Assembly: GCF_001598795.1 (NCBI RefSeq)
Contig: NZ_BCZP01000042.1
Span: 1-32,000 of the forward strand
Direction: 5' to 3'
From: Delftia acidovorans NBRC 14950
Lineage (GTDB): Bacteria; Pseudomonadota; Gammaproteobacteria; Burkholderiales; Burkholderiaceae_C
Length of the DNA stretch: 32,000 nucleotides
In this document: piece by piece, positions 6,862 through 20,144 of the stretch
How positions within the stretch are numbered: the stretch's first letter is position 1
How the letters are laid out: each line of letters opens with the position of its first letter
Made by a program: the position numbers and the translations under genes
Notes under the pieces: model-generated
The model's input: the letters and a program-made list of their open reading frames with translations, nothing else
Told to the model about the DNA's origin: nothing
The model's database searches: none

Positions 6862-6977
6862 TCGCTGGGGGCGGACGATCCGCCTCGTTGCTCGACCTGC
6901 AGCTTGCGACCCGAAACGGAAGCAGTGACCGCAGGAAAGCGGACATTCAAGCGCAACAATTGCTACGTGTCTCAGGC

Positions 6978-7373
6978 TTACGTGGAGTTGGACTTTGGAA
7001 ACTGCCTGGCATATGCCGCCACATGAGCCGGAAACAGCTCTTCGTAGATGGGATACGCAATTCCCAATACGCTTAGCTCCAAGCCTTCTGGCCCGAGCTC
7101 AAACGAATGGTCTTCGAGATGAATGGTGCCGCCGCCGGGCAGAGGCGAGCCGTTCGTTAGCCTTACTGAGAGGAAGAGGTGGTCCTGGCTCCCTCCAGCA
7201 GATTCGACGACTGCCTTCTGAACGTTGACGTATGCTGGGAGGGGAACGAAGCGCCCGAAGGCGACGTTCACCCCATACCGGACCTTCCACCGCCCGATAA
7301 TTGACGCATGAACCCCTGGAAGCATGTCATCGCGAAGTTGTCCGACACTGGACCTCTTTTGGCTCACTGGCAT
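6978..7373 (-). CDS. Hypothetical protein (up to 131 aa; start uncertain, alternative Met at 7325)
   Basis: Protein-like composition (…HLFLSVRLTNGSPLPGGGTIHLEDHSFELGPEGLELSVLGIAYPIYEELF…). Its 5' end overlaps the 5' end of the divergent ORF 7308..7631, so one of the two starts must be shorter. Confidence 0.35.
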   Translation of the reverse strand: MPVSQKRSSVGQLRDDMLPGVHASIIGRWKVRYGVNVAFGRFVPLPAYVNVQKAVVESAGGSQDHLFLSVRLTNGSPLPGGGTIHLEDHSFELGPEGLELSVLGIAYPIYEELFPAHVAAYARQFPKSNST

Positions 7374-7631
7374 CTTTACTCGGGCGTAGCGTTCTACATG
7401 TACGTGCCGAGGAAGTCAGACATCGGCTCGGAGACTATCAAGCCCGACTCCGAAGTGCGCTTTGAGGAAATAGCGCGGCTGGACATCATGCGCTCCCTGC
7501 GCCTTGGAGGCTTGGAGGCAACAAACGACCTCGACGTATGTCAACGTGCTGTTGCTTCAATTCCGGAAATAGCCTTGCAGGAAATCGAAGGCGGCATTCA
7601 GCTGAGTCTGCGCGGCACCGAAGTCCGCTAG
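7308..7631 (+). CDS. Hypothetical protein (up to 107 aa; alternative Met at 7398)
   Basis: Protein-like composition (…SETIKPDSEVRFEEIARLDIMRSLRLGGLEATNDLDVCQRAVASIPEIALQEIEGG…). No recognisable domain. Confidence 0.35.
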   Translation: MNPWKHVIAKLSDTGPLLAHWHLYSGVAFYMYVPRKSDIGSETIKPDSEVRFEEIARLDIMRSLRLGGLEATNDLDVCQRAVASIPEIALQEIEGGIQLSLRGTEVR

Positions 7632-7730
7632 TGGCCGAAGCCGGGCCTAGCTACTTGTGAGCGCAGCACCGCAAGGCTGACTGTAAGCGTCCGGTAAAGG
7701 CATCCGGCTGACGCCAGTCCCGCTCAAGCG

Positions 7731-8086
7731 TCAGAGTCGCTCCACCTCTTCGGCGCCCAGCTTGAACCGCTGGCCCGTGGATTCGGTGCCATGCACCTCG
7801 AATTCCGTTGCAGCGTCTCTGAGCGAGCTGCGGATGCTGCGAAGCAGCTCAACGGGCATGCCGCGATCCGGATCACTGGTATATCGGCACACCGACGTCT
7901 GCGTCTCGCTTGCTGGCACGAGATGGGTTCGAGCAATGTCGATGTCGTTGAAGTCCCCTAATGTGCCCAGTGCCCACTCGTATTCGTTCTCAGCGTCGAA
8001 CTCGACGGGGGCCAGCCCGATTCGTTCGGCAAGCTCCTCGAGCGAGAGCCCGGTTCTGAAGCTGATCGACAGGTATGTCTTCATCG
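7731..8086 (-). CDS. Hypothetical protein (118 aa)
   Basis: Internal Met of the 161-aa track ORF: MKTYLSISFRTGLSLEELAERIGLAPVEFDAENEYEWALGTLGDFNDIDIARTH... The upstream extension is Cys/Arg-rich and overlaps the IS66 remnant. Confidence 0.45.
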
Positions 8087-8088
8087 AG

Positions 8089-8245
8089 TAAGTTGTGTTG
8101 TTGACTTCACTCTTGACATTCTCCTCGCCAGCAATGGGGCAGGAGCTCATTGATGCGGCTGGCCGGCTGCGTCGGCAGCAGTTCCAGCACGTCGCGCAAG
8201 TAGGCGTAGGGTTCAAGCTCGTTGAGCTTGGCCGAGTGAATGAGG
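8089..8245 (-). mobile_element. IS66-family remnant: last ~46 codons of the transposase (TnpC) plus a short downstream tail; 5'-truncated
   Basis: Minus-strand translation of 8107-8250 reads ...AAVMSLIHSAKLNELEPYAYLRDVLELLPTQPASRINELLPHCW... This matches the characteristic C-terminus of IS66 transposases (…SLIxTAKLNGxxPxAYLxDVLxRLPT…IDELLPxNW). It is fused directly to porin-derived sequence at ~8246. GTAAG begins at 8089, 15 nt beyond the stop. Confidence 0.6.
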
Positions 8246-8406
8246 CTCATCACGGCCGCGCCCTGCTGTTTGCGGAATACAAGCTCTCGCGCCGCAGCAA
8301 GCTGTATGCGGAACTGGACCGCACGCATTGGAGCGGAGGGTTTCAGGGCGGGCAGAACAAGGATGTGGCTACGGGGGTGACTGCGGGGTTGATGCATAGC
8401 TTCTGA
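8246..8406 (+). pseudogene. Detached 3' fragment of a porin gene (repeat copy 2)
   Basis: Encodes RALLFAEYKLSRRSKLYAELDRTHWSGGFQGGQNKDVATGVTAGLMHSF*, identical in protein to the end of the porin at 5097..6164. It has no porin 5' part, and the upstream sequence is the IS66 remnant. Confidence 0.8.
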
Positions 8407-8438
8407 GGGGCGCTGCGAGCGCTCGCCCCATTGCCAAC

Positions 8439-8720
8439 TCAGCCGCCCAGCTTTTTGAACGGAGTGTCGGAAGTGATCCAGCCCTTGCCTTGGGGGCAGA
8501 TCACTTCCTTGTAACGCAGCTCTTTTTCAAAGCTCCACTGCTGGCCAAGTGCGCAAACGTCCCCTGAGTTGAGGACAAATGCCACTGTCTGTGGATCGCC
8601 TTTTTTCAGCAGAACATCGACGCTTTGCGTCGCTTCCCACCGCCCACTCGGTGACTGGCTGCATCCCAGAGTTGCCAGCAACGCCGTGATCGCTGCCCCT
8701 CGCAGTAGGTTTTTCATCAA
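8439..8720 (-). CDS. Small lipoprotein (93 aa), unknown function
   Basis: MMKNLLRGAAITALLATLGC has a lipobox (L-A-T-L-G-C) followed by a short soluble domain. Confidence 0.65.
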   Translation of the reverse strand: MMKNLLRGAAITALLATLGCSQSPSGRWEATQSVDVLLKKGDPQTVAFVLNSGDVCALGQQWSFEKELRYKEVICPQGKGWITSDTPFKKLGG

Positions 8721-9053
8721 CTGCCTTTCTGGTAGTTGTTGCGCGAAGACTTCCGAGCGACGGCTTCAGGCTGGTTGCCGACGTTCAGCGGAAACAATCA
8801 GACGACGGTTCTCGACCCAAAGCGGACATTGGTAAGTGCCCAAAAGTGGGCTCAGCTCGTTATGAGCGCATTTGCCAGACTGGTGCCTTCTGCCTGCGGA
8901 GCCACAGTCTTGCTTTCAGTTGGCATTTAGCCGGATGGACACGGAGAGGGTCTTGAACAGCGGATGCCCCTGTCGTGCTTCCCAAGCAGCAGCTTCGCCG
9001 CTGAACTCGCGTTGATGCCGAAATAGATGGTGCTGGCCCCAAACCAAGGAGGC

Positions 9054-9440
9054 TCAGCACGGGAAATGGGGCGCATCGCCAGGCTTGCCGGCTTCGACCC
9101 ATGCCAGCTTCTCGGTCAAGAAGGTGAGAGCTGCATCGAGTGCTGCGCGCTGCGATTGCAACTTGTCTATCTGGTGCCGCAGGACCTGCCCCGTGCGTGC
9201 GGCGGACTTTGCACCCTGCCGGTACTCGCGGTTGAGCGCCGAGATCTCGCTCAACGTATAGCCCAGCGATTTCTGCAGCTGAATCATCCGCACCGCGGTC
9301 ACGTCATCGGCAGAGAACACTTGGTACGGGTTGCTGCCACCCAGCACGCCGCGACGCGGCTTCAGCAGGCCCTTCCCCACATAGAAGCGGACCGTCTCGG
9401 GCGACAACCCCACCTCCTTCGCAAACTCCGACAACAGCAT
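9054..9440 (-). CDS. MerR-family transcriptional regulator
   Basis: MLLSEFAKEVGLSPETVRFYVGKGLL...FSADDVTAVRMIQLQKSLGYTLSEI is a MerR HTH, followed by a coiled-coil dimerisation helix. A single Cys is the last residue. Confidence 0.9.
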   Translation of the reverse strand: MLLSEFAKEVGLSPETVRFYVGKGLLKPRRGVLGGSNPYQVFSADDVTAVRMIQLQKSLGYTLSEISALNREYRQGAKSAARTGQVLRHQIDKLQSQRAALDAALTFLTEKLAWVEAGKPGDAPHFPC

Positions 9441-9449
9441 GCCGTCTCC

Positions 9450-9480
9450 TTGACCACGTAGTTAACTACGTGCTTATAAC
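9450..9480 (+). promoter_or_regulatory. MerR-type promoter/operator for the aldo-keto reductase gene
   Basis: TTGACC (9450-9455), a 19-nt spacer, then TATAAC (9475-9480). The spacer contains a perfect 18-bp palindrome CACGTAGTTAACTACGTG (9455-9472). It sits between the divergent MerR and AKR genes. Confidence 0.6.
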
Positions 9481-9508
9481 AATGATTTTTCCACCTGGAT
9501 CCAACGCC

Positions 9509-10492
9509 ATGCAATCTCCTCCCACAAAACTCCCTTGCGTTCATCTCGGCATAGACGGCCCACTCGTGGGCATCCAGGGTCTAGGCTGCATGGGTATGAG
9601 CGAATTTTATGGCGCCACTGACACCGAAGAGGCACGAGCAACACTGGAACGGGCGCTCGCCTTGGGTGTGACGCTGTTCGATACCGCAGACATGTACGGT
9701 CTGGGCGCCAACGAATCGTTCCTCGCGCCGTTTGTGAAGGCCAACCGGCAGCGCGTGGTGATCGCCACCAAGTTCGGCTACACGCGTACGGTCGAGAGGC
9801 CCGATGACTGGAGCCTCAGCAATCGCCCAGACTACATCCGGCATGCGGTCGATCAATCGCTGCGGCGTCTTGGTATTGACACCATCGACCTCTACTACAT
9901 GCACCGCCGCACACCTGACGTGCCCATGGAAGATTCGGTGGGCGCGATGGCGGATCTGGTGAAGGCCGGTAAGGTTCGGGCGCTCGGCTTGTGCGAGGTC
10001 AGTGCTGAAGAGTTGCGTGCAGCGCATGCCGTCCACCCCATCGCCGCGATGCAGTCTGAATGGTCGGTGTTCAGCCGCCAGATCGAGCAAGAGATCGCAC
10101 CGCTGGCGGCATCGCTGGGTGTCGCGATCGTGCCATTCGCCCCATTGGGGCGGGGTATCCTGACCGGCGCTACGTTCGGCAAGCAGTTGGCAGCAGACGA
10201 TTTCCGCCGACACTTCCCGCGCTTCCAGTCAGACAACCAGGCGTCGAATTCGAGGCTGGTGGCGAGGTTGGAAGCGCTTGCCAAAGCCCGTGGCATCTCG
10301 ACGGCGCAATTGGCGCTCGCCTGGCTGCAGACTCGCGCCAGGCAGTTCGACGTGACAGTCGTGCCTATTCCCGGCACGCGCCGTAGAGCGCGCCTCACCG
10401 AGAACGTGGCGGCTGCCTCCGTAGCATTGGATGAGCAGGAGATGTCGGCCATCGAGCCGCTGGCGGCGGCAGTTCAGGGCGTTTCGCTCTGA
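9509..10492 (+). CDS. Aldo/keto reductase (NADP-dependent oxidoreductase)
   Basis: GLGCMGMSEFYG...FDTADMYGLGANE...ATKFG...IDLYYMHRRTPDVP...GLCEVSAEELRAAH are classic AKR motifs. Start placed at ATG 9509 (MQSPPTK) rather than the track start 9470, which lies inside the promoter. Confidence 0.9.
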   Translation: MQSPPTKLPCVHLGIDGPLVGIQGLGCMGMSEFYGATDTEEARATLERALALGVTLFDTADMYGLGANESFLAPFVKANRQRVVIATKFGYTRTVERPDDWSLSNRPDYIRHAVDQSLRRLGIDTIDLYYMHRRTPDVPMEDSVGAMADLVKAGKVRALGLCEVSAEELRAAHAVHPIAAMQSEWSVFSRQIEQEIAPLAASLGVAIVPFAPLGRGILTGATFGKQLAADDFRRHFPRFQSDNQASNSRLVARLEALAKARGISTAQLALAWLQTRARQFDVTVVPIPGTRRRARLTENVAAASVALDEQEMSAIEPLAAAVQGVSL

Positions 10493-10566
10493 GCATGGCG
10501 GCCTGCCGCACATTTTGACGCTGCACCCCAAATCAATTAATATCCGTCCAGTCGGAAATAAATTAA

Positions 10567-11160
10567 TTGCTTATGGGACGCACGCGTGTAATAGATCAGG
10601 ACAAGCTGCTGGACGCGGCAGAAGTCGTTGTGGCTCGGGACGGGCCTGCGAAGCTGACGCTGGAGTCCGTCGCCACCGAAGCTGGCGTTAGCAAGGCGAG
10701 CGTGCTGTACGACCACCGGTCCAAGCAGGCTCTGATCCAGGCGCTCGTTCAGCGGGCACTGGTCCGGGACAACGCCTTCAACTCCGAAGCGGCGGAGCGT
10801 CTCGGCGAGATCGATTCCCGGACTGTCCGCGGGCGGATTGCCGCGGCCGCCGCTCCGCTGCCAACAGCACAACGTGCCGTTGCCCTGAGCCTCAGCGCCG
10901 CGCTGGTGCAGGACGCAAGTCTGCGCGAGTCGATGCAGGCGAATCAGGCTGCCGTCATCGACGCAGTACAGAGTGACGCGGCGCAACCAAGGGGCGCGCT
11001 GCTTGCCTACTTGGCGCTGGAAGGGCTCAAGCTGTTGGAGAGCTTGGACTTCCACACATTCCCGAAGGCGGAGCGAGATCGCTTGCTGCGCGAGATCGAA
11101 GGGCTGGTCGACCGGCCTGTCGCACTTGATTCATTCGTGAGACCTCAGCGGCCCCGCTGA
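10567..11160 (+). CDS. TetR/AcrR-family transcriptional regulator
   Basis: N-terminal HTH: LLDAAEVVVARDGPAKLTLESVATEAGVSKASVLYDHRSKQALIQALV. The C-terminal domain is helical. Confidence 0.85.
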   Translation: MLMGRTRVIDQDKLLDAAEVVVARDGPAKLTLESVATEAGVSKASVLYDHRSKQALIQALVQRALVRDNAFNSEAAERLGEIDSRTVRGRIAAAAAPLPTAQRAVALSLSAALVQDASLRESMQANQAAVIDAVQSDAAQPRGALLAYLALEGLKLLESLDFHTFPKAERDRLLREIEGLVDRPVALDSFVRPQRPR

Positions 11161-11243
11161 GGCGCTCTACCCCATATCAATTCCCATCCCGCCCGGGCCG
11201 ACAAGACGGCCCGCGGACTAACCACGTCAGTACGTATCGAGTC

Positions 11244-12302
11244 ATGAACGCTGTTGTCTCTAAATTGCCTGAATCGCATCCCGCACGATTGCCAGCCCGC
11301 CTGTTCCTGACGGGGGGAAGCGGCTATGTCGGTCGCAACCTGATCCGCCACTTCGTCTCGCAAGGTGTCGAAGTCATCGCGCTGGCGCGCAGCCCCGCTG
11401 CACAGGACACGATTCGCGCGTCAGGGGCGAATCCGTTCGAGGGAGATCTGCTGTCGGAGAATCTAGCCACCGGCATGGCGGGCTGCGATGCCCTGATTCA
11501 CGCCGCAGCGGATACGGACCACGGTCTCTCCACGGACGCACAGTTTCAGACGAACGTCATAGGTACGCGCCACGTGTTCGCAGCTGCTGCGCGAGCAGGC
11601 GTGCGGCGGGCTGTGCACCTGAGCACGGAGTCAGTGCTCCTAGACGGAAGCCCACTGGTGGACGCCGAAGAAAGCCGATCCATCCCCACCAGACCGGTCG
11701 GCGGCTACTCCGCCACGAAAGCTCTGGCGGAACGCGAGGCGATTGCCGCTGCGCGGCACGGACTAGACGTCGTCATCGTCCGCCCGCGCTTCATCTGGGG
11801 ACGCGACGACACGACCGCGCTTCCGCAACTGCTGCAGGCTGTGGATGCTGGGAAGTTCGCCTGGATCGATGGTGGCCGCTATCGCACGTCAACGACGCAC
11901 ATCGGTAATCTGGTGCACGGTATCGAGCGCGCGCTGATCGCTGGCGAGACGGGCGCCTGCTACTTCATCACAGATGACGACATCGTGGAGTTTCGTGCAT
12001 TCATCAGCGCATTGCTACAAAGCCAAGGACGCTCTGTCCCGACCAAGGAGGTTCCGGGCTGGGTGGTACGGGCCGTGGCCAGCGTCTGCGAACGTCTGTC
12101 GTCACTGACCGGCGGACGGTGGCGCCCGCCGGTCACCCGGCAGGCACTGGCGCCCTCGGCCGTTGAGGTGACGTTGAACATCGACAAGGCTCGACGCGAA
12201 CTGGGCTACCAGCCGCAAATCTCGCGCGCGCAAGGGCTTGAGGAACTAACGCTCGAGGACCGAGGTGAAAAGGGGCACCTGACAAGGAGTAAGCTGACTT
12301 AG
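11244..12302 (+). CDS. NAD-dependent epimerase/dehydratase-family (extended SDR) protein
   Basis: LFLTGGSGYVGRNLIRHF is a Rossmann GxxGxxG motif, and YSATKALAE is the catalytic YxxxK. The gene follows the TetR gene. Confidence 0.85.
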   Translation: MNAVVSKLPESHPARLPARLFLTGGSGYVGRNLIRHFVSQGVEVIALARSPAAQDTIRASGANPFEGDLLSENLATGMAGCDALIHAAADTDHGLSTDAQFQTNVIGTRHVFAAAARAGVRRAVHLSTESVLLDGSPLVDAEESRSIPTRPVGGYSATKALAEREAIAAARHGLDVVIVRPRFIWGRDDTTALPQLLQAVDAGKFAWIDGGRYRTSTTHIGNLVHGIERALIAGETGACYFITDDDIVEFRAFISALLQSQGRSVPTKEVPGWVVRAVASVCERLSSLTGGRWRPPVTRQALAPSAVEVTLNIDKARRELGYQPQISRAQGLEELTLEDRGEKGHLTRSKLT

Positions 12303-12397
12303 CCGATTCAATACGGCCGGATTGTTGATTTCCACGCACCCCCAGATTGCTTCGGTACTAACATGAAGCATAAAGGTGCTCTGAGGGCATCTTTTTG

Positions 12398-12682
12398 TCA
12401 CTTGAGAATGGCAGCTTTGCAAGCTAGGAACTGAGGCCGAGTGAGGATTCCAGCCTGCCTAAGCATTTCCATGGCTTGTATTGCTTTGGCTGTCTGAGCG
12501 GCAGGTGATGCTTGGGAAGGTTGTACTACAGCTTTTTTCTCTGAAGATGACTTCCTTGGCTGATCCCCGAAATCGATGTACTTGACCTGCCATGGCGCGT
12601 ATCCAACTGCTGCAGCCTCTGCAATTTCATCTGCAGAGTAGCCTTGGCTATGCATGTCATGTAGAAAGTCCCAGTCGCTCAT
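12398..12682 (-). CDS. Hypothetical protein (94 aa) with a SHOCT-like C-terminal motif
   Basis: GAGGG Shine-Dalgarno sequence ~7 nt upstream of the ATG. The C-terminus AIQAMEMLRQAGILTRPQFLACKAAIL resembles the short SHOCT motif (L..L...G.IT..E....K..LL). Confidence 0.5.
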   Translation of the reverse strand: MSDWDFLHDMHSQGYSADEIAEAAAVGYAPWQVKYIDFGDQPRKSSSEKKAVVQPSQASPAAQTAKAIQAMEMLRQAGILTRPQFLACKAAILK

Positions 12683-12915
12683 GTTGCGCCCTCTAGTTTT
12701 GGCTCTTTACAGCGTACAGGATGCTTGGCGGATCGTCAAAATTGACCACAGCTAGCTTCAATGTCTGGAGGATGGCTGATCTTCAACTGTCACAGATCGC
12801 CCCTATGCTGACGTTCGAGTCTCGATGAGCAATGTCTGCTTTGCAGCGGTTGCAGCCGCTTATTGCAGCTGGGCGAACTACCGCTCACCTAGTCATAGCG
12901 CTCTTTCAGAGCGCC

Positions 12916-12944
12916 AAAACAGTCACTTCCCCAATGACTGTTTT
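12916..12944. terminator. Symmetric hairpin, possible terminator for the gene ending at 13079
   Basis: AAAACAGTCA-cttccccaa-TGACTGTTTT: perfect 10-bp arms with A/T runs on both sides. Confidence 0.3.
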
Positions 12945-13078
12945 CAGGTCCGCAGCAGCCCCTCGCTAACAGGCAGTCACTGGGGATGCAGGAAGTCCGC
13001 TATCTCGGCCCGCGAATGAGTGCTGTCGACCCTTTCCTGACAAACGCTCTTGCCCAAAGCGGTCATTGGCGTCGCTCG

Positions 13079-13702
13079 TTAGCGGTCGTTCGACGTAAAG
13101 AGCGTTTGGTCGCCGGGATCGGTTACAACCGAAATCCCGGCCGCGTCGACCATTACCAGAAAGCCTTCAGGCAATACCAATGCCGCCGCGAGCTCGGGTC
13201 GCATCTTGAGCAACTGAAACGCGAAAACGGCTTCGAGCGCTGGAGCCAGCTCGCGAGGCCCTTGCTGGCCGATGAACCAGCCAGAATCGCCGTCGGTGGG
13301 ACTGGGTGCGCTACGCACCATGAACAAATTGTCCGCACTGAGGCATCCCTGGTCGATGACCACCTTGTCTTGAAAAGTGGTAGGAACGGGTTCGACGTCA
13401 ATCTTCTTGGCGAATGAGATTTGATTGAAAAGGACCTGCAGCGCGTTGCTCACATCGGTCGTCTCGTCTTTGAACGGGTCCGCATCGACATCTGGCACGC
13501 AAACCGCGAGTTCATTTGAAGGCAGGCGTCGAAAGGACATGAGCATGCTACCGACCTGCAGTCGCACTTCCTCGCCTACGCTTTGCCCAGACCCGTGGAG
13601 ACGAGTCAGGCAGTCGAGCAACCATTCGGCGTGAACAGCCATGCTGTCCGCACAAGCAACGGTTACCACCTCATCGCCGATCGCTGCATGTTTCTGAAGC
13701 AC
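13079..13702 (-). CDS. Hypothetical two-part protein (207 aa); C-terminal half possibly immunity-protein-like (Imm33/DUF2185-like, from memory only)
   Basis: GTG start preceded by AAGGA 5 nt upstream. The sequence has protein-like composition. The C-terminal ...SPTDGDSGWFIGQQGP...LLKMRPELAAALVLPEGFLVMVD recalls the SGW-containing DUF2185 pattern. The family call is not verified. Confidence 0.55.
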   Translation of the reverse strand: MLQKHAAIGDEVVTVACADSMAVHAEWLLDCLTRLHGSGQSVGEEVRLQVGSMLMSFRRLPSNELAVCVPDVDADPFKDETTDVSNALQVLFNQISFAKKIDVEPVPTTFQDKVVIDQGCLSADNLFMVRSAPSPTDGDSGWFIGQQGPRELAPALEAVFAFQLLKMRPELAAALVLPEGFLVMVDAAGISVVTDPGDQTLFTSNDR

Positions 13703-13876
13703 TTCAATCCTTCATCTTCTGAACACAATGTCTGCTGTTGGCCGAATTCTGCCTCACGCGTCGGGGGCTACGCGCCCGGACCGGCCATCGATGTCCGTTC
13801 TTTGAACGTCGGCAACCGCTGCAAAGCCGCCACACACAACCCACAGATCAGCATCACCAAATGGGTCGATATCAGA

Positions 13877-14011
13877 TCAGAAGCTAGACGACTGGCCAAG
13901 CCAGCGGATCAGTTCCGAGGGAGAGCCCAATTGCTTGGCTCTGCGACTGACCCATTCCAAGCGTATGCACAAGGCATTCAAGTTCCCGCGACGGATGAAA
14001 GATTCAGCCAT
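13877..14011 (-). CDS. Possible 44-aa ORF immediately downstream of the first CI-like repressor
   Basis: ATG 13 nt after the repressor stop: MAESFIRRGNLNALCIRLEWVSRRAKQLGSPSELIRWLGQSSSF. It is below the ORF-track length threshold, with no clear RBS and no domain. Confidence 0.2.
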   Translation of the reverse strand: MAESFIRRGNLNALCIRLEWVSRRAKQLGSPSELIRWLGQSSSF

Positions 14012-14026
14012 CAAGACAGGACAGAC

Positions 14027-14686
14027 TCAGAGCTTGGCCCCGACCCATATGGCTCGCCCTTGCACCAGGCCCTCAGCCTTCCCGGCAATGACGATATCCG
14101 GGTGCTCGCCCTTATCAGCGTTGTCGGCCACGGCATGCCAAACATCGCCCACCCGCTGAAAGCGCCGCACAAGCATCTGCCCTTCCCACGCGAATGCATA
14201 GACGCTGCCACGGCGCGGCGTTTGATCCGCACGATTGAGCAAGAGCACGGCACCGTCCCGGATCGTGGGCTCCATGCTGGTTCCTGCCACATGGACGAGG
14301 GCCGCGTTCACCGGGCTGACGCCGATAGCACGCAGAAAATCGCGTCGGAACTGGAGAGCCCCGAGTTCCTCGACAAGATTGGTTTTTCGAGAGCGTTCGG
14401 GCGCGGCTTCAGCATCCAGGCGGACGAGTTGGATGAAGTCCTCACCTTCCGCGACACGGCCTCGCAACAAGGTATCGACGTCCACGCTGAAGTAATCAGC
14501 AAACTTCTGCAGTGACTCCATTCGCACGCCAGTTTCCCCGCCAACGATGCGCTGCAAAGTGCCCTGCCCGATGTCGAATCCAGCATTCTTCATGTCACTA
14601 CGCAGGCGCCCGATCGCCTTGCCCTTGATCATCAGGGCAGCGTTTTCGGCCAATGTTGCGTTCACGAAGCTGCGCATGGGCAGCAT
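14027..14686 (-). CDS. CI/LexA-like repressor 1: XRE-type HTH + peptidase S24-fold domain
   Basis: N-terminal HTH (…GFDIGQGTLQRIVGGETGVRMESLQKFADYFSVDVDTLL). C-terminal VAGTSMEPTIRDGAVLLLN...GSVYAFAWEGQMLVRRFQRVGDVWHAVADN follows the GxSMxP...(V/L)-K-R-(L/F) layout of S24 autopeptidases. Confidence 0.85.
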   Translation of the reverse strand: MLPMRSFVNATLAENAALMIKGKAIGRLRSDMKNAGFDIGQGTLQRIVGGETGVRMESLQKFADYFSVDVDTLLRGRVAEGEDFIQLVRLDAEAAPERSRKTNLVEELGALQFRRDFLRAIGVSPVNAALVHVAGTSMEPTIRDGAVLLLNRADQTPRRGSVYAFAWEGQMLVRRFQRVGDVWHAVADNADKGEHPDIVIAGKAEGLVQGRAIWVGAKL

Positions 14687-14701
14687 TCTTTGGTCTTGCT
14701 A

Positions 14702-14745
14702 TACCGATTTCGGTACGATAGAGTTAGTGCAAATTCACTTGAATT
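14702..14745. promoter_or_regulatory. Two palindromes in the repressor-1 / paralogue-A intergenic region (candidate operators)
   Basis: TACCGA-TT-TCGGTA at 14702-14715 and AATTCA-CT-TGAATT at 14732-14745. Both have perfect arms and lie in the A/T-richer 184-bp gap. Confidence 0.4.
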
Positions 14746-14870
14746 CGCCAGTTTTGAAGAGCCAGCCTATGGCTCAACTTAAAACTTCTCATACCGCGTT
14801 CGGTGAAGCTGTCCAAACTCTGGATCAACTTGGCCGCACAAGCTTCAACTAGACGCAGACGCCTACATCC

Positions 14871-15587
14871 ATGCACATCACCCACCACTTCACCCCTGGC
14901 CTGCGCTTCGCTGCGCAATGGAAGTACGCCGCCCGCGCGCCATCGGGCCGGGCCTGTTGGTCGCGGCTGCCGCTGGGGCAGCCTGATGCGGGCAGGGCTG
15001 ATCCGCATGGCGCCTGGTGGTGTGTGCGGCGCTGCGCTGCCGTGCTGCGGCGGGAGATGTGGCAGTCGGTGAATCTGCCTTCAGACATACCTTTGCGGCC
15101 GGGGCCGGAAGATGTGGCGCTGGCCCTGAACGCGCTGATGCCGCGCTGGCAGGTACAACTGAGCGCAGGGGCCGGGCACATGTCCATGCAGTCCTGCACC
15201 CAGGCAGTGATGGCCGGGGGCGGAGCGGTGCTGCAACTGCAGTCAGAGGCGCTGCACCAGCGGCCGCAGAGCACGTTCTGGGCCTGGGTGATTGGCGTGG
15301 AGATGCATCAGAAGATGCGGCCCGCGCCGGTGAAGCCATGGCCCGCAAGCCGCGCGCCCCGCCCTGTCGCGCTGCTGACCATTCCCTTTGGCTGGAGCAT
15401 GCCCTGGGCCTGCGGCTATGCGGCGCGGGTGCAGATGAACAGCGACGGGCGCTGCGATGTGGATGGCATTGACGGGCAGTGGCGCGAGTGCCGCTGCCTT
15501 GCCGCCGTGACGCTGTCGCCCGCGCAAGACGTGCAACGCGGCCAACACGGCCATGCCGGCCTCCTGCAGGGGTACCCACTGTGTTGA
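14871..15587 (+). CDS. Uncharacterised Trp/Cys-motif protein, paralogue A (238 aa)
   Basis: Shares GLRF..W.Y, DPHGAWWCVRRCAAVL, GGGAVLQLQSE, FWAWVIGVEMH, LLTIPFG..PW and GRC-x11-C.C.AAVTL with ORFs B, C and D. Nucleotide differences between the paralogues in the WWC motif fall mostly at third positions (tgt/tgc, gtg/gtt, cgg/cgc), which supports this frame. Confidence 0.6.
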   Translation: MHITHHFTPGLRFAAQWKYAARAPSGRACWSRLPLGQPDAGRADPHGAWWCVRRCAAVLRREMWQSVNLPSDIPLRPGPEDVALALNALMPRWQVQLSAGAGHMSMQSCTQAVMAGGGAVLQLQSEALHQRPQSTFWAWVIGVEMHQKMRPAPVKPWPASRAPRPVALLTIPFGWSMPWACGYAARVQMNSDGRCDVDGIDGQWRECRCLAAVTLSPAQDVQRGQHGHAGLLQGYPLC

Positions 15588-15676
15588 TGCCTGCCCGCGT
15601 CGGAAGATTTTCCCAAGCCGCTTGTCGCTTGCCACCATCCATGAACCACGGGCGCGGTGCCAGGGCTTCGGCCCTG

Positions 15677-16342
15677 CTACCTGGCCTGGAGCCGCCGGCG
15701 ATGCTCCACCACGGTGCCGCGCAACTGCAGTGCCTGCTCGTCGCTGCACAGTGTGGGATGGTCTTCGTTGAGCGGCACCAGCTCGAAGATTTCCGCACCG
15801 GCCTTGTCCAGGCCGCGCACCCGGTACTTGCGCAAGATGGACTGTTGCCGGCAGTCGGTGGCCAGCACGCAGTCCCCGGGCCGCGGCGTCAGGGCTGGAT
15901 CGATGAGCACGCGGTCCCCTTCCCGGATTTCCGGGGCCATGGCGTTGTCTTCCAATCGCACGAAGAACGCACGAGGCGATGCGTTGTCGCTGGCGACTTC
16001 GATGCCCAGGAACTGCTCGTCGTCGGCATCGCCCATGGCGTCTTCTGCGCTGCGGCCGCCGGCCTGCTGCAGGCCAAGCAGCGGGTAGCGGCGTGTGCCC
16101 TGGGGCAGTTGGCGCTGCAGCGCTGCGGCATCGGCCGACATGGGGCCCTTGCCGCATTCCAGCCACAGGGCCGAGACACCGCACAGGGACGCGAGCGTGG
16201 CTGTTTTGGAGGTGCCGCTTCCGCTTCTCTCAAGGTCAGCAATGGTCGATTGCCCCATGCCCGCCTGGCGGCCCAGCTGCGCTTGGGTAAGACCCGCGAG
16301 ACTGCGAGCGCTTTTGAGACGTTGGCCGAAATCGGTTGACAT
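15677..16342 (-). CDS. CI/LexA-like repressor 2: XRE-type HTH + peptidase S24-fold domain (nucleophile Ser replaced by Ala)
   Basis: HTH: LKSARSLAGLTQAQLGRQAGMGQSTIADLERS. C-terminal FFVRLEDNAMAPEIREGDRVLIDP...GDCVLATDCRQQSILRKYRV...LVPLNEDH aligns with lambda CI EVEGNSMTAP...FTFKKL...LQPLNPQ. Confidence 0.85.
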   Translation of the reverse strand: MSTDFGQRLKSARSLAGLTQAQLGRQAGMGQSTIADLERSGSGTSKTATLASLCGVSALWLECGKGPMSADAAALQRQLPQGTRRYPLLGLQQAGGRSAEDAMGDADDEQFLGIEVASDNASPRAFFVRLEDNAMAPEIREGDRVLIDPALTPRPGDCVLATDCRQQSILRKYRVRGLDKAGAEIFELVPLNEDHPTLCSDEQALQLRGTVVEHRRRLQAR

Positions 16343-16345
16343 GCT

Positions 16346-16409
16346 CCGTAGCTTACGGAAAACCGATATGTCAAATTCGATTGTAAAAAAATCGACTTTT
16401 CGATAGCAT
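16346..16409. promoter_or_regulatory. Repressor-2 / cro-like intergenic control region: palindromes and a candidate promoter
   Basis: CCGTA-GCT-TACGG at 16346-16358. TCGATT-gtaaaaa-AATCGA at 16377-16395. TTGTAA (16381-16386), a 17-nt spacer, then TAGCAT (16404-16409), whose last base is 7 nt before the A of the cro-like ATG at 16416. Confidence 0.35.
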
Positions 16410-16415
16410 GAAACT

Positions 16416-16649
16416 ATGGAATGGAAAGACTACCTCGCCAGACTTGCTGCGAAGGGTGTCAGTCAAAGCCAGATCGCCCGCGAAGTGGGCTGCGGTCAAG
16501 CAACGATTTCTGACCTCGCATTGGGCAAGACCAAAGAGCCGCGCACATCCCTGGGTATGGCGCTCATGCGCATCGGGGACCGCTGCGGCATCAAGACTCC
16601 GTACGGTGCCCCGCCTTCGGCACACGATGATGAGAGGTCCTGTGGCTGA
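16416..16649 (+). CDS. Cro-like small HTH protein (77 aa)
   Basis: MEWKDYLARLAAKGVSQSQIAREVGCGQATISDLALGKTKEP contains a helix-turn-helix. It is divergent from repressor 2, as in a phage immunity switch. Its stop (16647-16649) overlaps the start of paralogue B. Confidence 0.7.
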   Translation: MEWKDYLARLAAKGVSQSQIAREVGCGQATISDLALGKTKEPRTSLGMALMRIGDRCGIKTPYGAPPSAHDDERSCG

Positions 16650-17340
16650 GACCACGCACCTCACCCACCGCTTCACCCGAGGGCTTCGCTTTGACGGACT
16701 GTGGACCTACTCGGCGCTCACGCCTTCAGGCCGAGCCTATTGGGCACGACTGCCGGCAACCCGGGCAGGCGGCATGGCTGCAGCAGATCCACAGCGGGCC
16801 TGGTGGTGCGTGCGCCAGTGCGTTGCAGTGCTCAATCGCAGGCCCTGGCGTTCCGCGCATCTGCCCTCGGGCCTGCCTGCGCAGCCGGAATGTGGCGATG
16901 TGGCGCTGGCCCTGGGCGCAATGCTTGCGGACTGGAACGTGAAGGTGCTCGATGACCCCTCGACACAGGCGCCGCTGCTGCGCAGCACCGATGCGCTGCT
17001 TGCCGGTGGCTGCTCTTTGCTGCAACTGCAGACCGAGGATTCAAGCGATGGCGTGCAAGCCGTTTTCTGGGCCTGGGTGATCGGCGTGGAAATGCACGAG
17101 AGGTTCCAGCGCGCCAAGCGCATTTCAGCCTTTGACATGCCCGGGCGTCCTAGCGCGCTGCTGATCTGGCCCTTCGGCTCGCCCCTGGCATGGAATCACG
17201 CCTTGAGGGTGACGGTGGATGGCGAGGGGCTGTGTGATGTGGATGGCCTGGATGCGCGCGCAAGCCGGTACCGCTGCACGGCGGCCATCACGCTGGAGCC
17301 ACTGAGCAACGACATTGCCATCAACGGCAGCTTCTCCTGA
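16642..17340 (+). CDS. Uncharacterised Trp/Cys-motif protein, paralogue B (about 232 aa)
   Basis: Same motif set as A (GLRFDGLWTY, DPQRAWWCVRQCVAVL, GGCSLLQLQTE, FWAWVIGVEMH, LLIWPFG, GLC-x11-C.AAITL). GTG at 16642 is preceded by GAGAGG 4 nt upstream. In-frame ATGs at 16627/16630 are alternatives. The rest of the 310-aa track ORF upstream overlaps cro in another frame. Confidence 0.65.
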   Translation: MAETTHLTHRFTRGLRFDGLWTYSALTPSGRAYWARLPATRAGGMAAADPQRAWWCVRQCVAVLNRRPWRSAHLPSGLPAQPECGDVALALGAMLADWNVKVLDDPSTQAPLLRSTDALLAGGCSLLQLQTEDSSDGVQAVFWAWVIGVEMHERFQRAKRISAFDMPGRPSALLIWPFGSPLAWNHALRVTVDGEGLCDVDGLDARASRYRCTAAITLEPLSNDIAINGSFS

Positions 17341-17372
17341 CCGGCTTTTTCTGACCGGCTTTTCCTGACCCG
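17337..17372 (+). repeat. 14-bp tandem repeat (2.6 copies) at the B/C junction
   Basis: CTGACCGGCTTTTT / CTGACCGGCTTTTC / CTGACCCG. The first TGA is the stop of paralogue B. Because the unit is 14 nt, the three TGAs fall in three different frames. Confidence 0.8.
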
Positions 17373-17377
17373 ATGAA

Positions 17378-18121
17378 ATGCAGAACTCCAATCTCACGCC
17401 AGAGCAGTACGAGCGGGAAATTCCGCTGGAGCCAAGTAGTCCCGGTCAACGCCTCATCAGCGGCCTGCTCTTTGATGGTCACTGGCAATACATAAGGCGT
17501 GCGGAAGCCGGCAAGACCAGCTGGACACAGCTGCCGATGGCCTCCGACCTTGCTGGCCCGGCCGACCCTTATGGCACCTGGTGGTGCGTTCGCCGGTGCG
17601 CCGTGGTTCTGGAGCAGCACCACTGGTTGTTCCTGCGGCTGCCCGTTCACCTGCCCCCGCTTCCCGACGTGGAGGAGCTGGCGCAGATCCTTGATGTGCT
17701 GCTGCCCGATTGGGACGTGCAGGCACCTGCGGAATGCGCCCGGACGCCCTTGCTGTGCGCCCAGGCAGTCGAGCAGGGAGGCAGTGCCTTGCTGATGCTG
17801 GAGTCACCGGAATGCGAAGGGCCCAAGCCGGGCATTTTCTGGGCCTGGGTGGTGGGGTACGAGCCGGAGCTGCCGTTGTCGTGCACCGACGATTGCGTTG
17901 CGTCCGAAACGTTGCCGTCAGCGGGTGCGCAGGCCATGGCGCCTCCCAAGGCTTTGCTTGCCATGCCCTTTGGCTCGACCCTGCCCTGGTCCAGCGGGTA
18001 CGCCACCCGGATCCAGGTGCAAGCCGACGGGACCTGCCTCCTGCATGATGCGGGCGGCCCCTGGCACCCATGCCAGTGGCTTGGCACGGTCACGCTTGCA
18101 GCCAGGCCCGCACCGGACTGA
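17378..18121 (+). CDS. Uncharacterised Trp/Cys-motif protein, paralogue C (247 aa)
   Basis: GLLFDGHWQY, DPYGTWWCVRRCAVVL, GGSALLMLESP, FWAWVVGYE, LLAMPFGSTLPW, GTC-x11-C.W.GTVTL. It has a longer N-terminus and a longer insert after the FWAWV motif. Confidence 0.65.
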   Translation: MQNSNLTPEQYEREIPLEPSSPGQRLISGLLFDGHWQYIRRAEAGKTSWTQLPMASDLAGPADPYGTWWCVRRCAVVLEQHHWLFLRLPVHLPPLPDVEELAQILDVLLPDWDVQAPAECARTPLLCAQAVEQGGSALLMLESPECEGPKPGIFWAWVVGYEPELPLSCTDDCVASETLPSAGAQAMAPPKALLAMPFGSTLPWSSGYATRIQVQADGTCLLHDAGGPWHPCQWLGTVTLAARPAPD

Positions 18122-18143
18122 CGCTGGTGACTCTGCAGCCGCA

Positions 18144-18830
18144 ATGCACATGCCCAGGTCTCCAATTCGTACCTTCATGCCCGGCCTGCGCTTCGATACG
18201 CAATGGCGCTACGAGGTGGGTACACAGACGCGCAAGACGCGCTGGGCCACACTGCCCACGGTTCCCGATGCCCAGTGCCTGCCCGATCCGCTGGGCGCCT
18301 GGTGGTGTGCACGGCGATGCGCTGCCGTGCTGCGGCAACGGGCATGGCTGCAGGTGCAATTGCCGCTGCAGTTGACGCCACAGCCCGGCCCGCAAGAGCT
18401 GGCGCAGGTTCTGGCTTTGCTGCTGCCCGGCTGGAAAGCGCAGCTTGAGAATTTCCCCGCCCTCGCTCCGCTGCGTTGTGCCCAAGCCATGCAGCGGGGC
18501 GGCAGCGCCATGCTGCTGCTGGAAATGCCAGGTCACAGATTTCGCCACCCGGCGCTCTTCTGGACCTGGGTGATCGGCATGGAGCGATCACCGCTGCGCC
18601 TGCGCTCTGCAAAAAATCTCACGCGCCTCGAACCCTATCCACCAGCGCAGCCGCTGCCCGAAACCTTGCTGGCCATGCCCGCCCGCCGCTCAAGGCCCGG
18701 CGCCAACCGCCACGTCACCCGCATCCAGATGGACGCCGCCGGGCGCTGCATCTCGGATGACGCCGCCTGGCCATCGGATGGATGCAGGTGGCTGGCCTGC
18801 ATCACGCTGGAGCAGTTGGGCGGGGGTTGA
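18144..18830 (+). CDS. Uncharacterised Trp/Cys-motif protein, paralogue D (228 aa)
   Basis: The start ATGCACATG resembles the paralogue A start ATGCACATC. Motifs: GLRFDTQWRY, DPLGAWWCARRCAAVL, GGSAMLLLEMP, FWTWVIGME, LLAMPAR, GRC-x11-C.W.ACITL. The upstream part of the 310-aa track ORF overlaps paralogue C out of frame. Confidence 0.65.
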   Translation: MHMPRSPIRTFMPGLRFDTQWRYEVGTQTRKTRWATLPTVPDAQCLPDPLGAWWCARRCAAVLRQRAWLQVQLPLQLTPQPGPQELAQVLALLLPGWKAQLENFPALAPLRCAQAMQRGGSAMLLLEMPGHRFRHPALFWTWVIGMERSPLRLRSAKNLTRLEPYPPAQPLPETLLAMPARRSRPGANRHVTRIQMDAAGRCISDDAAWPSDGCRWLACITLEQLGGG

Positions 18831-18869: not shown

Positions 18870-20048
18870 TCAGGTCGGCGTATCCACGTCATCCCAGTCA
18901 TTGCCCTCGAAGCGCACCAGCCAGTTCAGCGCATGGTGGCGTTCCATGAGCACGTCGGCGCTCAGCCCGGCGGGCGCGGGCTGCTGTTGCACCTGGGCCT
19001 GGCGCACGATCCAGTGCAGGCGGTAGTGCTGGTCCAGGGCGTCGAGGATTTCGCTGTCGGGCCGCATGCGTGCGGCATGCAGGGCGCCTTGCAGGTCGCC
19101 CGCCTGCAGCAGGGTGCGCGAGGTGAGCGGCACATCGCAGATGGCGTCGGGGAACGGCAGCGCATCGACCAGGCCCAGCGCCCATTCCAGCAAATACGCG
19201 GCTTCGTAGCGCCAGCCGAACTTGGCGATGGCCTCTTCGGAGGGCTGGGCAGTGGCCATGAATTCGCGCTCGTTGGGGGTGAGCGCAGCCTGGGCGGCCG
19301 GCAGGCGCTGGAACAGCTGCTCGGGCGTGAGCGGTTCGCCACTGGTCAGTGCTTCGTTCAGTGCGTCGTTCAGTGATTCGGCGCGCACGGCCACGGCCAG
19401 CAGGGCAAAGGCACGGGCGGCGATCTCGTCGGGTGCGCGCATGCGCAGTTCGGGCTCGGAGATCAGCGGCGGCAGGCTGGCCGCTGGCGTGAAGCCGCGC
19501 TGCGCCAGCACCTGTTCGCTGCGCTGCTTGCGATGCCAGGCCTGCTGCGGATAGGGCAGCGCAGCCTGGTCATCAGGCTCGGCGCCGCTGGCATCCAGCA
19601 GGATGCGGCCCTGCGGGTCGCGGATGCTGCCGTCCGTCAGAAAGGCGATGGCGTTGGCGCGCTGTGCCCAGCCGGCAAAGGCATCGAGCTGGGCCGGCGC
19701 AATGCCCAGGCTCAGGTGCTGCTGCACGCGCTGGATGTGGCGCATGGCGTGGTAGCGGTTGCGCGTCATCTGCCCATCGCCGCGCCCCAGCACATAGCCG
19801 ACAAAGCCTGAAAGATGCGATGCCAGTTCGGGGTCCGACAGATCGCGGCGCCCGGCCAGCGTGTGCGCAAAGTCAAGCGCGGGAAGGTCCCAGACGGTGC
19901 AGTAGGCGTTGATGAGTACTTCGTCTTCTGCGGCATCCGACTGGGGTTCGTGCGGCTGGTGCTGGTTTTGCGGGTGTTCCTGTTGGCGAGCGGGCTCGGG
20001 GGCGGGCTTGCTGAATGCGGTCTTGAGGCGGGTGAGGAGGTTTTTCAT
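18870..20048 (-). CDS. DUF4272-domain protein (C-terminal half) with an uncharacterised N-terminal half (392 aa)
   Basis: The C-terminal ...FGWRYEAAYLLEWALGLVDALPFP...HYRLHWIVRQA...LMERHHALNWLVRFEGNDWDDVDTPT matches my recollection of the DUF4272 signature (…ERHxALNWL…WDxVxTxT). Start set at MKNLLTRLK (20048). The 25-codon upstream extension is low-complexity. Confidence 0.6.
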   Translation of the reverse strand: MKNLLTRLKTAFSKPAPEPARQQEHPQNQHQPHEPQSDAAEDEVLINAYCTVWDLPALDFAHTLAGRRDLSDPELASHLSGFVGYVLGRGDGQMTRNRYHAMRHIQRVQQHLSLGIAPAQLDAFAGWAQRANAIAFLTDGSIRDPQGRILLDASGAEPDDQAALPYPQQAWHRKQRSEQVLAQRGFTPAASLPPLISEPELRMRAPDEIAARAFALLAVAVRAESLNDALNEALTSGEPLTPEQLFQRLPAAQAALTPNEREFMATAQPSEEAIAKFGWRYEAAYLLEWALGLVDALPFPDAICDVPLTSRTLLQAGDLQGALHAARMRPDSEILDALDQHYRLHWIVRQAQVQQQPAPAGLSADVLMERHHALNWLVRFEGNDWDDVDTPT

Positions 20049-20058
20049 GTTCACGGGC

Positions 20059-20088
20059 TTGGTTCCGGGGTTGGTTCCGGGATTGGGA
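20059..20088. repeat. 12-bp tandem repeat just upstream of the DUF4272 gene start
   Basis: TTGGTTCCGGGG / TTGGTTCCGGGA / TTGGGA(GC). On the minus strand this would read PNPGTNPGT if the longer start at 20123 were used. Confidence 0.6.
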
Positions 20089-20144
20089 GCGGCAGGAATC
20101 ACCCCGCCTCTTGGCCACAGCACGGCCTGCAGGCGGCGGGTGAC

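Follow-up and report, generated by a model that had tools for sequence, protein, structure and literature searches.

A tandem array of predicted papain-fold proteins lacking the canonical catalytic residues, set behind CI-like repressors in Delftia acidovorans

Introduction

In cryptic prophages of Escherichia coli, the RacR-YdaS/YdaT and DicA-DicC-DicB systems consist of a CI-like repressor gene divergent from a Cro-like gene and early genes, and they are kept silent. In the ImmR/ImmA (ICEBs1), CapH/CapP and DdrO/IrrE pairs, a helix-turn-helix (HTH) repressor is accompanied by a metallopeptidase that has an intact active site and is co-expressed with the repressor. A different use of protease scaffolds is found in the C39-like domains (CLD) of RTX/HlyB-type ABC transporters, in which the papain/C39 scaffold has been kept after loss of the catalytic residues and is used for binding. 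Here we describe a locus of Delftia acidovorans NBRC 14950, located in a stretch of 32,000 nucleotides (contig NZ_BCZP01000042.1, positions 1 to 32,000; hereafter the window), in which four tandem paralogous genes, A to D, lie behind two divergent repressor genes, rep1 and rep2, and a Cro-like gene, cro. Like the RacR and DicA systems, this module has persisted as a chromosomal locus with no integrase or structural genes beside it. Unlike in those systems, its repressors carry an S24 domain with a broken catalytic dyad, and its downstream genes, which have been multiplied to four or five paralogues, are unrelated to the E. coli genes in sequence and fold. We tentatively favour the view, which we regard as possible, that A-D are silenced activation-phase genes of a mobile element that act by binding, not by cleavage, in conflicts with the host or between elements.

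Results

Four genuine paralogues under purifying selection

A-D are genuine paralogous genes under purifying selection. The four open reading frames (ORFs) predicted from the letters of the window alone were all found on the plus strand (Table 1), together with the ordered set of motifs that had been proposed for them. The proteins can be aligned over their full length, with pairwise identities of 32-47% (38-46% against A) and 45 invariant columns. Their codon composition is that of coding sequence, with GC3 (0.75-0.81) above GC1 and GC1 above GC2. In the 44 columns in which all four have an identical amino acid, codon position 3 varies in 22, position 1 in 3 and position 2 in 0, which bears out the earlier argument from third positions that the frame is real. 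The ratio of nonsynonymous to synonymous substitution rates (dN/dS), originally suggested as a check, was 0.32 for A, 0.54 for B, 0.33 for C and 0.12 for D against the orthologues of D. acidovorans MMO-42 (locus L001; homologous loci and proteins are given L and P numbers). The lowest value was thus that of D, despite the degenerate PFG..PW motif of this copy, and the value for A ranged from 0.22 to 0.32 across orthologue comparisons. In the MMO-42 comparison a nearby porin gene gave 0.07 and the three regulators 0.21-0.25; gene by gene, the values for the regulators were 0.21 (rep1), 0.24 (rep2) and 0.10-0.25 (cro). Proteins identical to A-D are encoded in public D. acidovorans genomes (QQB51976-80), where they are annotated as 'hypothetical protein', and the 90%-identity cluster of each paralogue has 200-260 members, all from Delftia bar one Polaromonas record.

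The B-C spacer (17339-17366) contains a 13-nucleotide tandem duplication, CTGACCGGCTTTT twice, followed by CCTGACCC.

A family new to annotation libraries

Neither A-D nor 64 of their relatives matched any entry of Pfam, NCBIfam, PADLOC or PHROGs, so that the family stays unrecognised, as first noted. Peptidase profiles gave no match at E <= 1 in any of the 64 family members. PADLOC returned no defence-model hit for A-D, its only matches being weak HTH ones (capH, RmrA) for rep2, and in a profile search of PDB sequences the only match was a designed repeat protein (E 0.97). A weak match to PHROG_5050 (E 0.0027 over 25 residues) was disregarded. Relatives were recovered as 28 clusters by a word-indexed search, and an exhaustive hidden Markov model (HMM) search of 1.84 billion representative proteins found 100 at E <= 1e-3, 42 of them at E <= 1e-10. 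The named sources of family members, Delftia, Comamonas, Acidovorax and Polaromonas, are all Comamonadaceae. Plasmid and phage collections contained no family member by tblastn, and scans of IMG/VR with patterns for the two clades described below revealed no relatives. The literature on PF18897, on Gp3-like/YagK and on the Daci locus tags held nothing on the family; that on DUF932 held descriptive mentions only, including a gene of a Variovorax integrative and conjugative element mutated under phage pressure. Judged from its sequences, the family is small, new to annotation libraries, and made up of cytoplasmic proteins of ~200-250 residues.

A predicted papain-like fold

An AlphaFold model of A, based on an alignment of 20 sequences, reached a predicted local distance difference test (pLDDT) of 82.6 and a predicted template modelling score (pTM) of 0.82. 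The top 10 matches of this model in a Foldseek search of the PDB were all clan CA peptidases (probability 0.97-1.00, TMq 0.35-0.46), and included Treponema C0362, staphopains A, B and C, the Bacteroides type VI secretion system (T6SS) effector domain BtaeB-CTD, and IdeS/IdeC. An independent model of the distant member P0066, based on 64 sequences (pLDDT 91.8, pTM 0.88), had UfSP2, IdeC/IdeS, C0362 and BtaeB as its top 8 matches. For both models taken together, E-values were 4e-4 to 1.4e-2 and TMq 0.30-0.48. These models indicate that the family fold is papain-like (clan CA), with the addition of a family-specific N-terminal beta-hairpin region. The original prediction had guessed at a papain/C39-like fold that had lost its His. 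The fold is upheld by the papain-like peptidases at the top of both searches, and the His-equivalent residue of A-D is Phe when judged by motif correspondence.

Both family models have their overall fold in common with the clan CA peptidases staphopain (C47), IdeS/IdeC/C0362 (C66-like) and UfSP2 (C78). The order of elements is also common to the family and to the clan: a Cys helix (G.WWC in the family, GWC in staphopain), an alpha/beta insert in which a G-G strand follows the second helix (GG.A.L.L, KGIAILG), a long 'His' strand ending in G (FWAWVIG, GHAMAVVG), and a strand followed by P-W (PW, NPW). The staphopain sequence was checked against 1CV8. In contrast to this structural agreement, the family has no sequence similarity to these peptidases: there was no PDB or Pfam match, and an hhalign comparison with staphopain, which pairs C51 with Cys24 and F136 with His120, was not significant (probability 0.28).

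Catalytic residues and cysteines

Residue conservation was examined in a 93-sequence alignment of the family, using the numbering of A. G10, F13, L33, P34, W137, G142, E144, L168, L169 and W179 are near-universal, and H5, R12, Y19, P178, G182, R186 and G202 slightly less conserved. The positions that motif correspondence equates with the catalytic triad do not belong to either set. Position 51, which sits in the helix 48-60 of the A model and is an invariant Cys in the close clade that includes A-D (clade I), is C in 56 sequences, S in 16 and A in 13. Position 136, the His-equivalent, is R in 31, F in 25 and C in 9, with few His, and is Phe in A-D; position 172, the Asn/Asp-equivalent, is D in 44, P in 31 and G in 10, being Pro in A-D and Asp in the distant clade. 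Taken together, the three positions read C-F-P in 23 sequences including A-D, C/S/A-R-D in 25, and C-H-D in only 2 of the 93. On these residues, canonical Cys-His proteolysis by A-D is excluded.

A-D might still have some other Cys-based chemistry or a metal site, because four cysteines are kept in clade I (C51, C55, C195 and either C207 or C209). Three Cys columns, C51, C55 and C195, are invariant in A-D, whereas four had been counted originally; the fourth Cys is in column 209 in A and B and is shifted by two columns, to 207, in C and D. Family-wide, position 55 is C in 69 sequences and A in 17. Two candidate features were rejected: H5, the one further conserved His, as a substitute catalytic His, since C has Gln and D has Arg at this position, and a zinc-finger or four-Cys site as a family-wide feature, since the cysteines are not conserved outside clade I.

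Within clade I, residues 51 and 55 are one helix turn apart, and are accompanied by 195 and by 207 or 209. The members P0025 and P0026 lack Cys 195 and 207/209 together, yet retain 51 and 55. From this pattern, the clade I Cys set could be a metal or redox site.

Table 1. Positions of the array genes, their regulators, candidate operators and the convergent neighbour in the window
Feature	Position	Strand	Description
rep1	14027-14686	-	HTH + Peptidase_S24, divergent from A; Pfam S24 E 6.5e-14, HTH_26 E 0.0017 (weak HTH); PHROG_4 transcriptional repressor E 2.9e-24
Candidate operator O1	14701-14714	.	palindrome ATACCGATTTCGGT(A) adjoining rep1 start; direct-repeat family D2; identical in L001
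Candidate operator O2	14791-14804	.	ATACCGCGTTCGGT; 86% identity to O1, 90 nucleotides downstream of O1, upstream of A
Paralogue A	14871-15587	+	238 residues; papain-like fold (AlphaFold 2 model); triad-equivalent residues Cys51, Phe136, Pro172
rep2	15677-16342	-	HTH_31 (E 3.2e-9) + Peptidase_S24 (E 7.9e-11), Pfam
Candidate operator, inverted repeat	16373-16399	.	AAATTCGATT / AATCGACTTT within 73-nucleotide rep2-cro spacer
Cro-like small HTH protein (cro)	16416-16649	+	77 residues; leads cro-B-C-D operon; Pfam HTH_3 E 6.8e-5; PHROG_6831 E 4.3e-13
Paralogue B	16642-17340	+	232 residues; GTG start
Paralogue C	17378-18121	+	247 residues; cluster includes Daci_2535 (strain SPH-1)
Paralogue D	18144-18830	+	228 residues; degenerate PFG..PW motif
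DUF4272 protein	18870-20123	-	417 residues; Pfam E 1.5e-72; convergent with D, 39-nucleotide gap

Close relatives are linked to S24 repressors

Besides the window, eight loci carrying close homologues (WWCxRRC type, clade I) were examined, and an adjacent S24 repressor was found in 8/8: by blast in L001 to L004, and among called divergent genes in L006, L013, L014 and L017. The proposed survey of neighbourhoods for HTH-S24 linkage thus returned a divergent S24 repressor for every close homologue examined. The organisation of L001 resembles that of the window, with a fifth, partial copy. L002 and L003 have A and a fragment of B joined to the end of D, and L003 is without rep2 and cro. The Comamonas locus L004 has two repressors and two copies, the second of which contains an in-frame stop. 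Single copies occur in L006, behind a rep2-type repressor and a 75-residue Cro and surrounded by ordinary metabolic genes, and in L013 and L014, behind a rep1-type repressor; L017 has an S24 repressor and two tandem copies. The number of copies among loci is 1.3, 2, 4 or 5. A-like copies are found behind either repressor type: behind rep1 in the window and L013, and behind rep2 and cro in L002 and L006. Altered copies among the relatives include the frameshift fusion P0027, the B/D hybrid deletion and the in-frame stop of the Comamonas copy.

In L003 (10712-10965; D. tsuruhatensis NBRC 16741) and L002 (4689-4942; a Comamonas metagenome-assembled genome), B is present as its first 85 codons, which have 98% identity to those of the window and run straight into the last codons of D. 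From its sequence, this junction is probably a deletion by recombination between paralogues; in L003, rep2 and cro were lost too. The fifth copy of L001 (13921-14373) corresponds to the 3' half of A, with 89% identity, and is followed by a 4-kb insertion. This insertion encodes an 874-residue He_PIG Ig-repeat protein (14605-17229) that bears an IPTL-CTERM sorting signal, and also a nucleotidyltransferase fragment.

Distant relatives end a mobile-element operon

The distant members (clade II, X in the following) have a second reproducible setting, as the last gene of an operon comprising DUF932, YqaJ and Gp3-like (PF18897, 'recombination directionality factor-like') genes. YagK/YfjJ is often upstream of it, and X is followed by an H-NS gene, then by cargo (metal resistance, WYL, Wadjet or insertion sequence (IS) elements). 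The DUF932-YqaJ-Gp3-like-X setting was found in L005 (an Acidovorax chromosome), L008-L012, L015/16 and L019. Among 23 metagenome loci, 16 have DUF932, YqaJ or Gp3-like upstream of X on the same strand, with the variants DUF932-YqaJ-X and DUF932-X. X overlaps the preceding gene in L012, L015, L018 and L019, an arrangement like that of B and cro in the window. S24 and Cro genes were not seen near clade II members, and no DUF932, YqaJ or Gp3-like gene is present in the window. In a neighbour-joining tree, for which there is no bootstrap support, every S24-linked member falls into a single clade that branches from within the DUF932/Gp3-linked lineages. This nesting suggests that the family was captured behind a repressor and that tandem duplication followed. 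The locus had been described as a stand-alone module rather than a prophage. That it can stand alone agrees with L006, set among metabolic genes, and with the absence of phage genes from the window; its independence from mobile elements does not hold, since the distant members lie in an operon of integrative elements.

Defence-type cargo follows X directly in two loci: a Wadjet JetA-D operon in L019 (3880-9772), and WYL/WCX, SHOCT, SWIB and a large GTPase-like gene in L009 (8545-14694). In these, the family gene marks the border between the core operon of the element and its cargo. In the Acidovorax locus L005, the gene after the H-NS gene of the element (11474-13144) encodes a repeat protein of 556 residues whose C-terminus is a hydrophobic anchor. 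Judged by eye, this protein is similar to the Ig-repeat IPTL-CTERM protein of L001, which may be coincidence.

Repressors with broken catalytic dyads

Pfam and PHROG matches and coordinates substantiate the two divergent HTH-S24 repressors and the Cro-like gene overlapping B that had been recognised from the sequence. The rep2-cro pair fits a CI/Cro layout, with a divergent repressor, a small Cro-like HTH protein and an inverted repeat between them. The TGA stop of cro (16647-16649) overlaps the GTG start of B (16642) by 8 nucleotides, with GAGAGG as the upstream Shine-Dalgarno sequence, and cro orthologues were located in L001, L002 and L006. The rep1 side has no Cro gene and two palindromes: ATACCG-N2-TTCGGT is present twice in the rep1-A spacer, as candidate operators, and is kept in L001.

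Both repressors have the N-terminal HTH and C-terminal S24 architecture of LexA/CI-type repressors, and both lack an intact Ser-Lys dyad in an S24 alignment with LexA and lambda CI. In rep1, the nucleophile Ser is kept and the general-base Lys is replaced by Arg (MLVRRF). The same replacement was observed in all four rep1 orthologues examined, and in a fifth, L013, Ser is additionally replaced by Gly. Where the cleavage site belongs, rep1 has LGALQ, with no Ala-Gly aligned to the LexA/CI sites; the linkers align poorly. In rep2, Lys is retained, and Ala takes the place of Ser (DNAMAP) both in this strain and in L006, whereas the orthologues of L001, L002, L004 and L017 retain Ser. QQA-GG of rep2 aligns with the CI cleavage site QA-GM, again in poorly aligning linkers. 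Because of the Lys to Arg and Ser to Ala replacements, classic SOS self-cleavage is not expected for either window repressor, and SOS-type self-cleavage of rep1 and rep2 appears unlikely in this strain. Thus the 'CI/Cro-type switches' of the original prediction stand as far as their architecture is concerned, but in this strain they should not operate through canonical self-cleavage. The sequences indicate that the rep1 lineage is long uncleavable, and rep2 looks like a recently locked allele of the ind-minus type.

A sigma-70 consensus scan returned 0 sites, terminator-like sites showed no excess over the shuffled background, and Rfam and tRNA scans of the window detected no features. A 27-codon ORF (14769-14852; MAQLKTSHTAFGEAVQTLDQLGRTSFN) between rep1 and A spans candidate operator O2. 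Its peptide also begins the frameshifted 265-residue fusion protein P0027 of another Delftia genome. This ORF could be a leader peptide or merely conserved DNA.

Chromosomal surroundings

The neighbours of the locus in Delftia and Comamonas are a porin gene on one side and, on the other, a DUF4272 gene with a sigma-54 regulator; this spot differs among strains. Part of the window has a lowered G+C content, about 58% against 68%. From ~6000 to 15000 the values are 55-64%, compared with 67-70% to either side, in agreement with an origin of this DNA by horizontal transfer. The window contains no integrase, replication, packaging, capsid, tail, structural or lysis gene, in accordance with the initial observation that phage genes are lacking, and the flanks consist of ordinary chromosomal genes. 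No PAAR, Rhs, CDI or cognate toxin gene is found near the array. A functional link with DUF4272, for which co-occurrence had been suggested as a check, was rejected: the two are adjacent only in Delftia-type synteny, DUF4272 is absent from other family loci, and a 4-kb insertion separates them in L001.

In the low-G+C stretch there are further ORFs, by eye MerR-like, aldo/keto reductase-like, TetR-like and epimerase-like, which differ from L001 at this position. Upstream of rep1 are two minus-strand genes, for a 94-residue protein with a SHOCT-like C-terminus by eye and no Pfam hit (12398-12682), and for a 207-residue Imm33-like protein (13079-13702; Pfam E 6.6e-16). The presence of an orphan immunity-type gene close to the array is in keeping with a variable conflict island. 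The last ~50 codons of the porin gene (5061-6164; …LLFAEYKLSRRSKLYAELDRTHWSGGFQGGQNKDVATGVTAGLMHSF) are repeated 2 kb downstream (8095-8406). The ~2.1 kb between the two porin ends (6174-8256) is absent from L001 and L003 and ends in a C-terminal fragment of an IS66-type transposase (8107-8397, minus strand). From its sequence, this arrangement looks like an insertion with duplication of the end of the target gene.

Discussion

The explanation that we tentatively favour, silenced activation-phase genes that act by binding, would involve the following steps. The family may have originated as the accessory last gene of an activation-phase operon of Burkholderiales integrative elements, DUF932-(YqaJ)-(Gp3-like, RDF-like), where RDF stands for recombination directionality factor, and in which the gene is often translationally coupled to the preceding one. 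One lineage would have come under a phage-type HTH-S24 repressor, either alone or together with Cro, and tandem duplication would have come next, at a variable chromosomal site in Delftia and Comamonas. A-D would be made only upon removal of the repressor, when the switch flips, and would then bind a cellular or rival-element protein without cleaving it, behaving as pseudoproteases. Their role in conflict may be host takeover, growth arrest, exclusion or counter-defence. The repressor would have been retained to keep A-D silent, as in RacR-YdaS/YdaT and DicA-DicC/DicB.

Several observations weigh against this explanation. The Foldseek TM-scores are modest (0.35-0.48), and the correspondence of residues to the catalytic triad comes from the order of motifs and secondary structures plus an hhalign comparison that was not significant (probability 0.28). 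Since no family member turned up in the phage, plasmid and IMG/VR collections that were searched, it is the neighbouring genes that define which type of mobile element is concerned. Permanently silent genes should decay, so that a dN/dS below 1 for A-D means that they must be expressed under some condition. Clade II has no adjacent repressor, and toxicity is thus not implied there. Finally, C51 and C55 are invariant throughout the 20 clade I sequences, a hint of chemistry or of a bound metal rather than of pure binding.

This last point also speaks for A-D being active non-canonical thiol enzymes (protease, deamidase, transferase or similar) that use Cys51/Cys55 with a substitute base and serve as intracellular toxins or modifiers once derepressed. 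Their predicted cysteine-peptidase fold, the T6SS toxin domain among the structural neighbours, and the conserved P178-W179, which matches the NPW element beside the papain-type active site, are in line with such a function. We nevertheless consider it unlikely, given that Phe and Pro occupy the His- and Asn/Asp-equivalent positions in all window copies, that positions 51 (C56/S16/A13) and 55 (C69/A17) vary across the family, that the best alternative base, H5, is lost in C (Gln) and D (Arg), and that no peptidase profile matches any of 64 members at E <= 1. The broken dyads of both window repressors, and of the rep1 orthologues throughout, imply that an external trigger is needed. The locus might accordingly be pictured as a phage-sensing defence island, in which non-cleavable CI-like repressors are inactivated by a phage anti-repressor or another protein, as is Stl of the Staphylococcus aureus pathogenicity islands (SaPI), and diversified papain-fold proteins then stop the phage or cause abortive infection. 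In favour of this picture are the tandem arrangement of diverged paralogues, whose copy number is in flux, the position of the array at a variable low-GC spot of the chromosome adjoining Imm33-like and DUF4272 genes, and relatives placed beside defence cargo such as the Wadjet operon of L019. It remains a rather doubtful one, as no paralogue has a PADLOC hit or a known effector chemistry and clade II members sit in the element's own operon, not in its cargo; moreover, rep2 orthologues elsewhere retain Ser, Lys and the Ala-Gly site, which makes ordinary SOS induction the simpler trigger in those strains. There is likewise only a small chance that the locus is a novel type of inducible conflict module. 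Its uncleavable CI-like repressors would sense an invading phage or element and, once inactivated, let loose a diversifying set of pseudoproteases of papain fold, or else of non-canonical enzymes that depend on Cys, which would bind proteins of the invader or the host and disable them; the family would have come from the activation operon of integrative elements.

Translational coupling to an upstream DNA-binding switch protein is found in both settings (cro-B in the window; Gp3-like-X in L012, L015 and L019), and together with a protease-like fold and repressors that cannot cleave themselves it could suggest that A-D are partners of the switch. They would then act on the repressor as ImmA does on ImmR or CapP on CapH, by binding or inactivating it, or would help Cro or the RDF-like protein, with positive feedback once the switch begins to flip. 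This is very unlikely: A-like copies pair with either repressor type and thus do not co-vary with it, one repressor does not need four or five diverged copies, X in some clade II loci comes straight after DUF932 or YqaJ, with no Gp3-like gene, and the catalytic residues are absent. Decay of the element is suggested by the truncated, hybrid, frameshifted and stop-containing copies of relatives, by the lost repressor residues and by the absence of other element genes from the window, as if the array were the functionless remnant of an immunity region drifting toward loss. This idea has a slender chance of being correct when set against intact frames, dN/dS values of 0.12-0.54 for the four copies and 0.10-0.25 for the regulators, the conservation of each copy in more than 200 Delftia sequences and that of the module in other genera. 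Tandem diverged paralogues whose number differs among strains, next to Imm33-like and DUF4272 genes, might also be orphan immunity-type proteins against polymorphic toxins, collected in an immunity island. We find this hardly credible, because no cognate toxin, PAAR, Rhs or CDI gene is nearby, the Cro side of a CI/Cro switch is not the usual place for immunity genes, clade II genes have a fixed place in the DUF932-YqaJ-Gp3-like operon, and the adjacency of DUF4272 is synteny only.

If the family members act as binders in conflict, as in the explanation that we favour, they would provide an example of mobile elements reusing inactive enzyme scaffolds, and would help to explain the recurrent DUF932-YqaJ-Gp3-like operon of Burkholderiales integrative elements. 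The S24/Cro switch and the papain fold are parts of known kinds; the protein family itself is new to annotation libraries, is without the defining catalytic residues, and shows a reproducible link to an uncharacterised mobile-element operon. The distribution of the family is narrow and its regulatory architecture conventional. With a fold, a phylogenetic range and two reproducible genomic settings, this unnamed family has now become experimentally tractable. The uncleavable repressor alleles, with Lys to Arg fixed in one lineage and Ser to Ala in single strains of the other, offer a natural comparison for the rewiring or locking of CI-type switches after domestication.

Comparison with known systems

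The window regulators resemble the S24 repressor systems of lambda CI/Cro, LexA and the SetR type of SXT in their HTH-S24 architecture, divergent promoters, palindromic candidate operators and small Cro-like HTH protein. They differ from them by the Lys to Arg replacement and missing Ala-Gly of rep1 and the Ser to Ala replacement of rep2, with which self-cleavage is not expected. Compared with the clan CA peptidases, the family has, by motif correspondence, Phe (window copies) or Arg (many relatives) in place of the catalytic His and Pro in place of Asn/Asp. It also has an extra N-terminal four-strand region with a conserved HxFxGLRF..Y, and is cytoplasmic, without pro-region or signal peptide. 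Retention of the scaffold after loss of the catalytic residues is a feature that A-D would have in common with the CLD and other papain-fold pseudopeptidases, a comparison already made in the original prediction. In contrast to the CLD, family members are stand-alone proteins and not transporter domains, and no sequence or profile relation to Peptidase_C39 was found. As in ImmR/ImmA, CapH/CapP and DdrO/IrrE, an HTH repressor gene lies beside a protease-fold gene on a mobile or defence element; in the Delftia locus, however, the protease-fold genes are on the repressed side of the switch and encode proteins without the catalytic residues.

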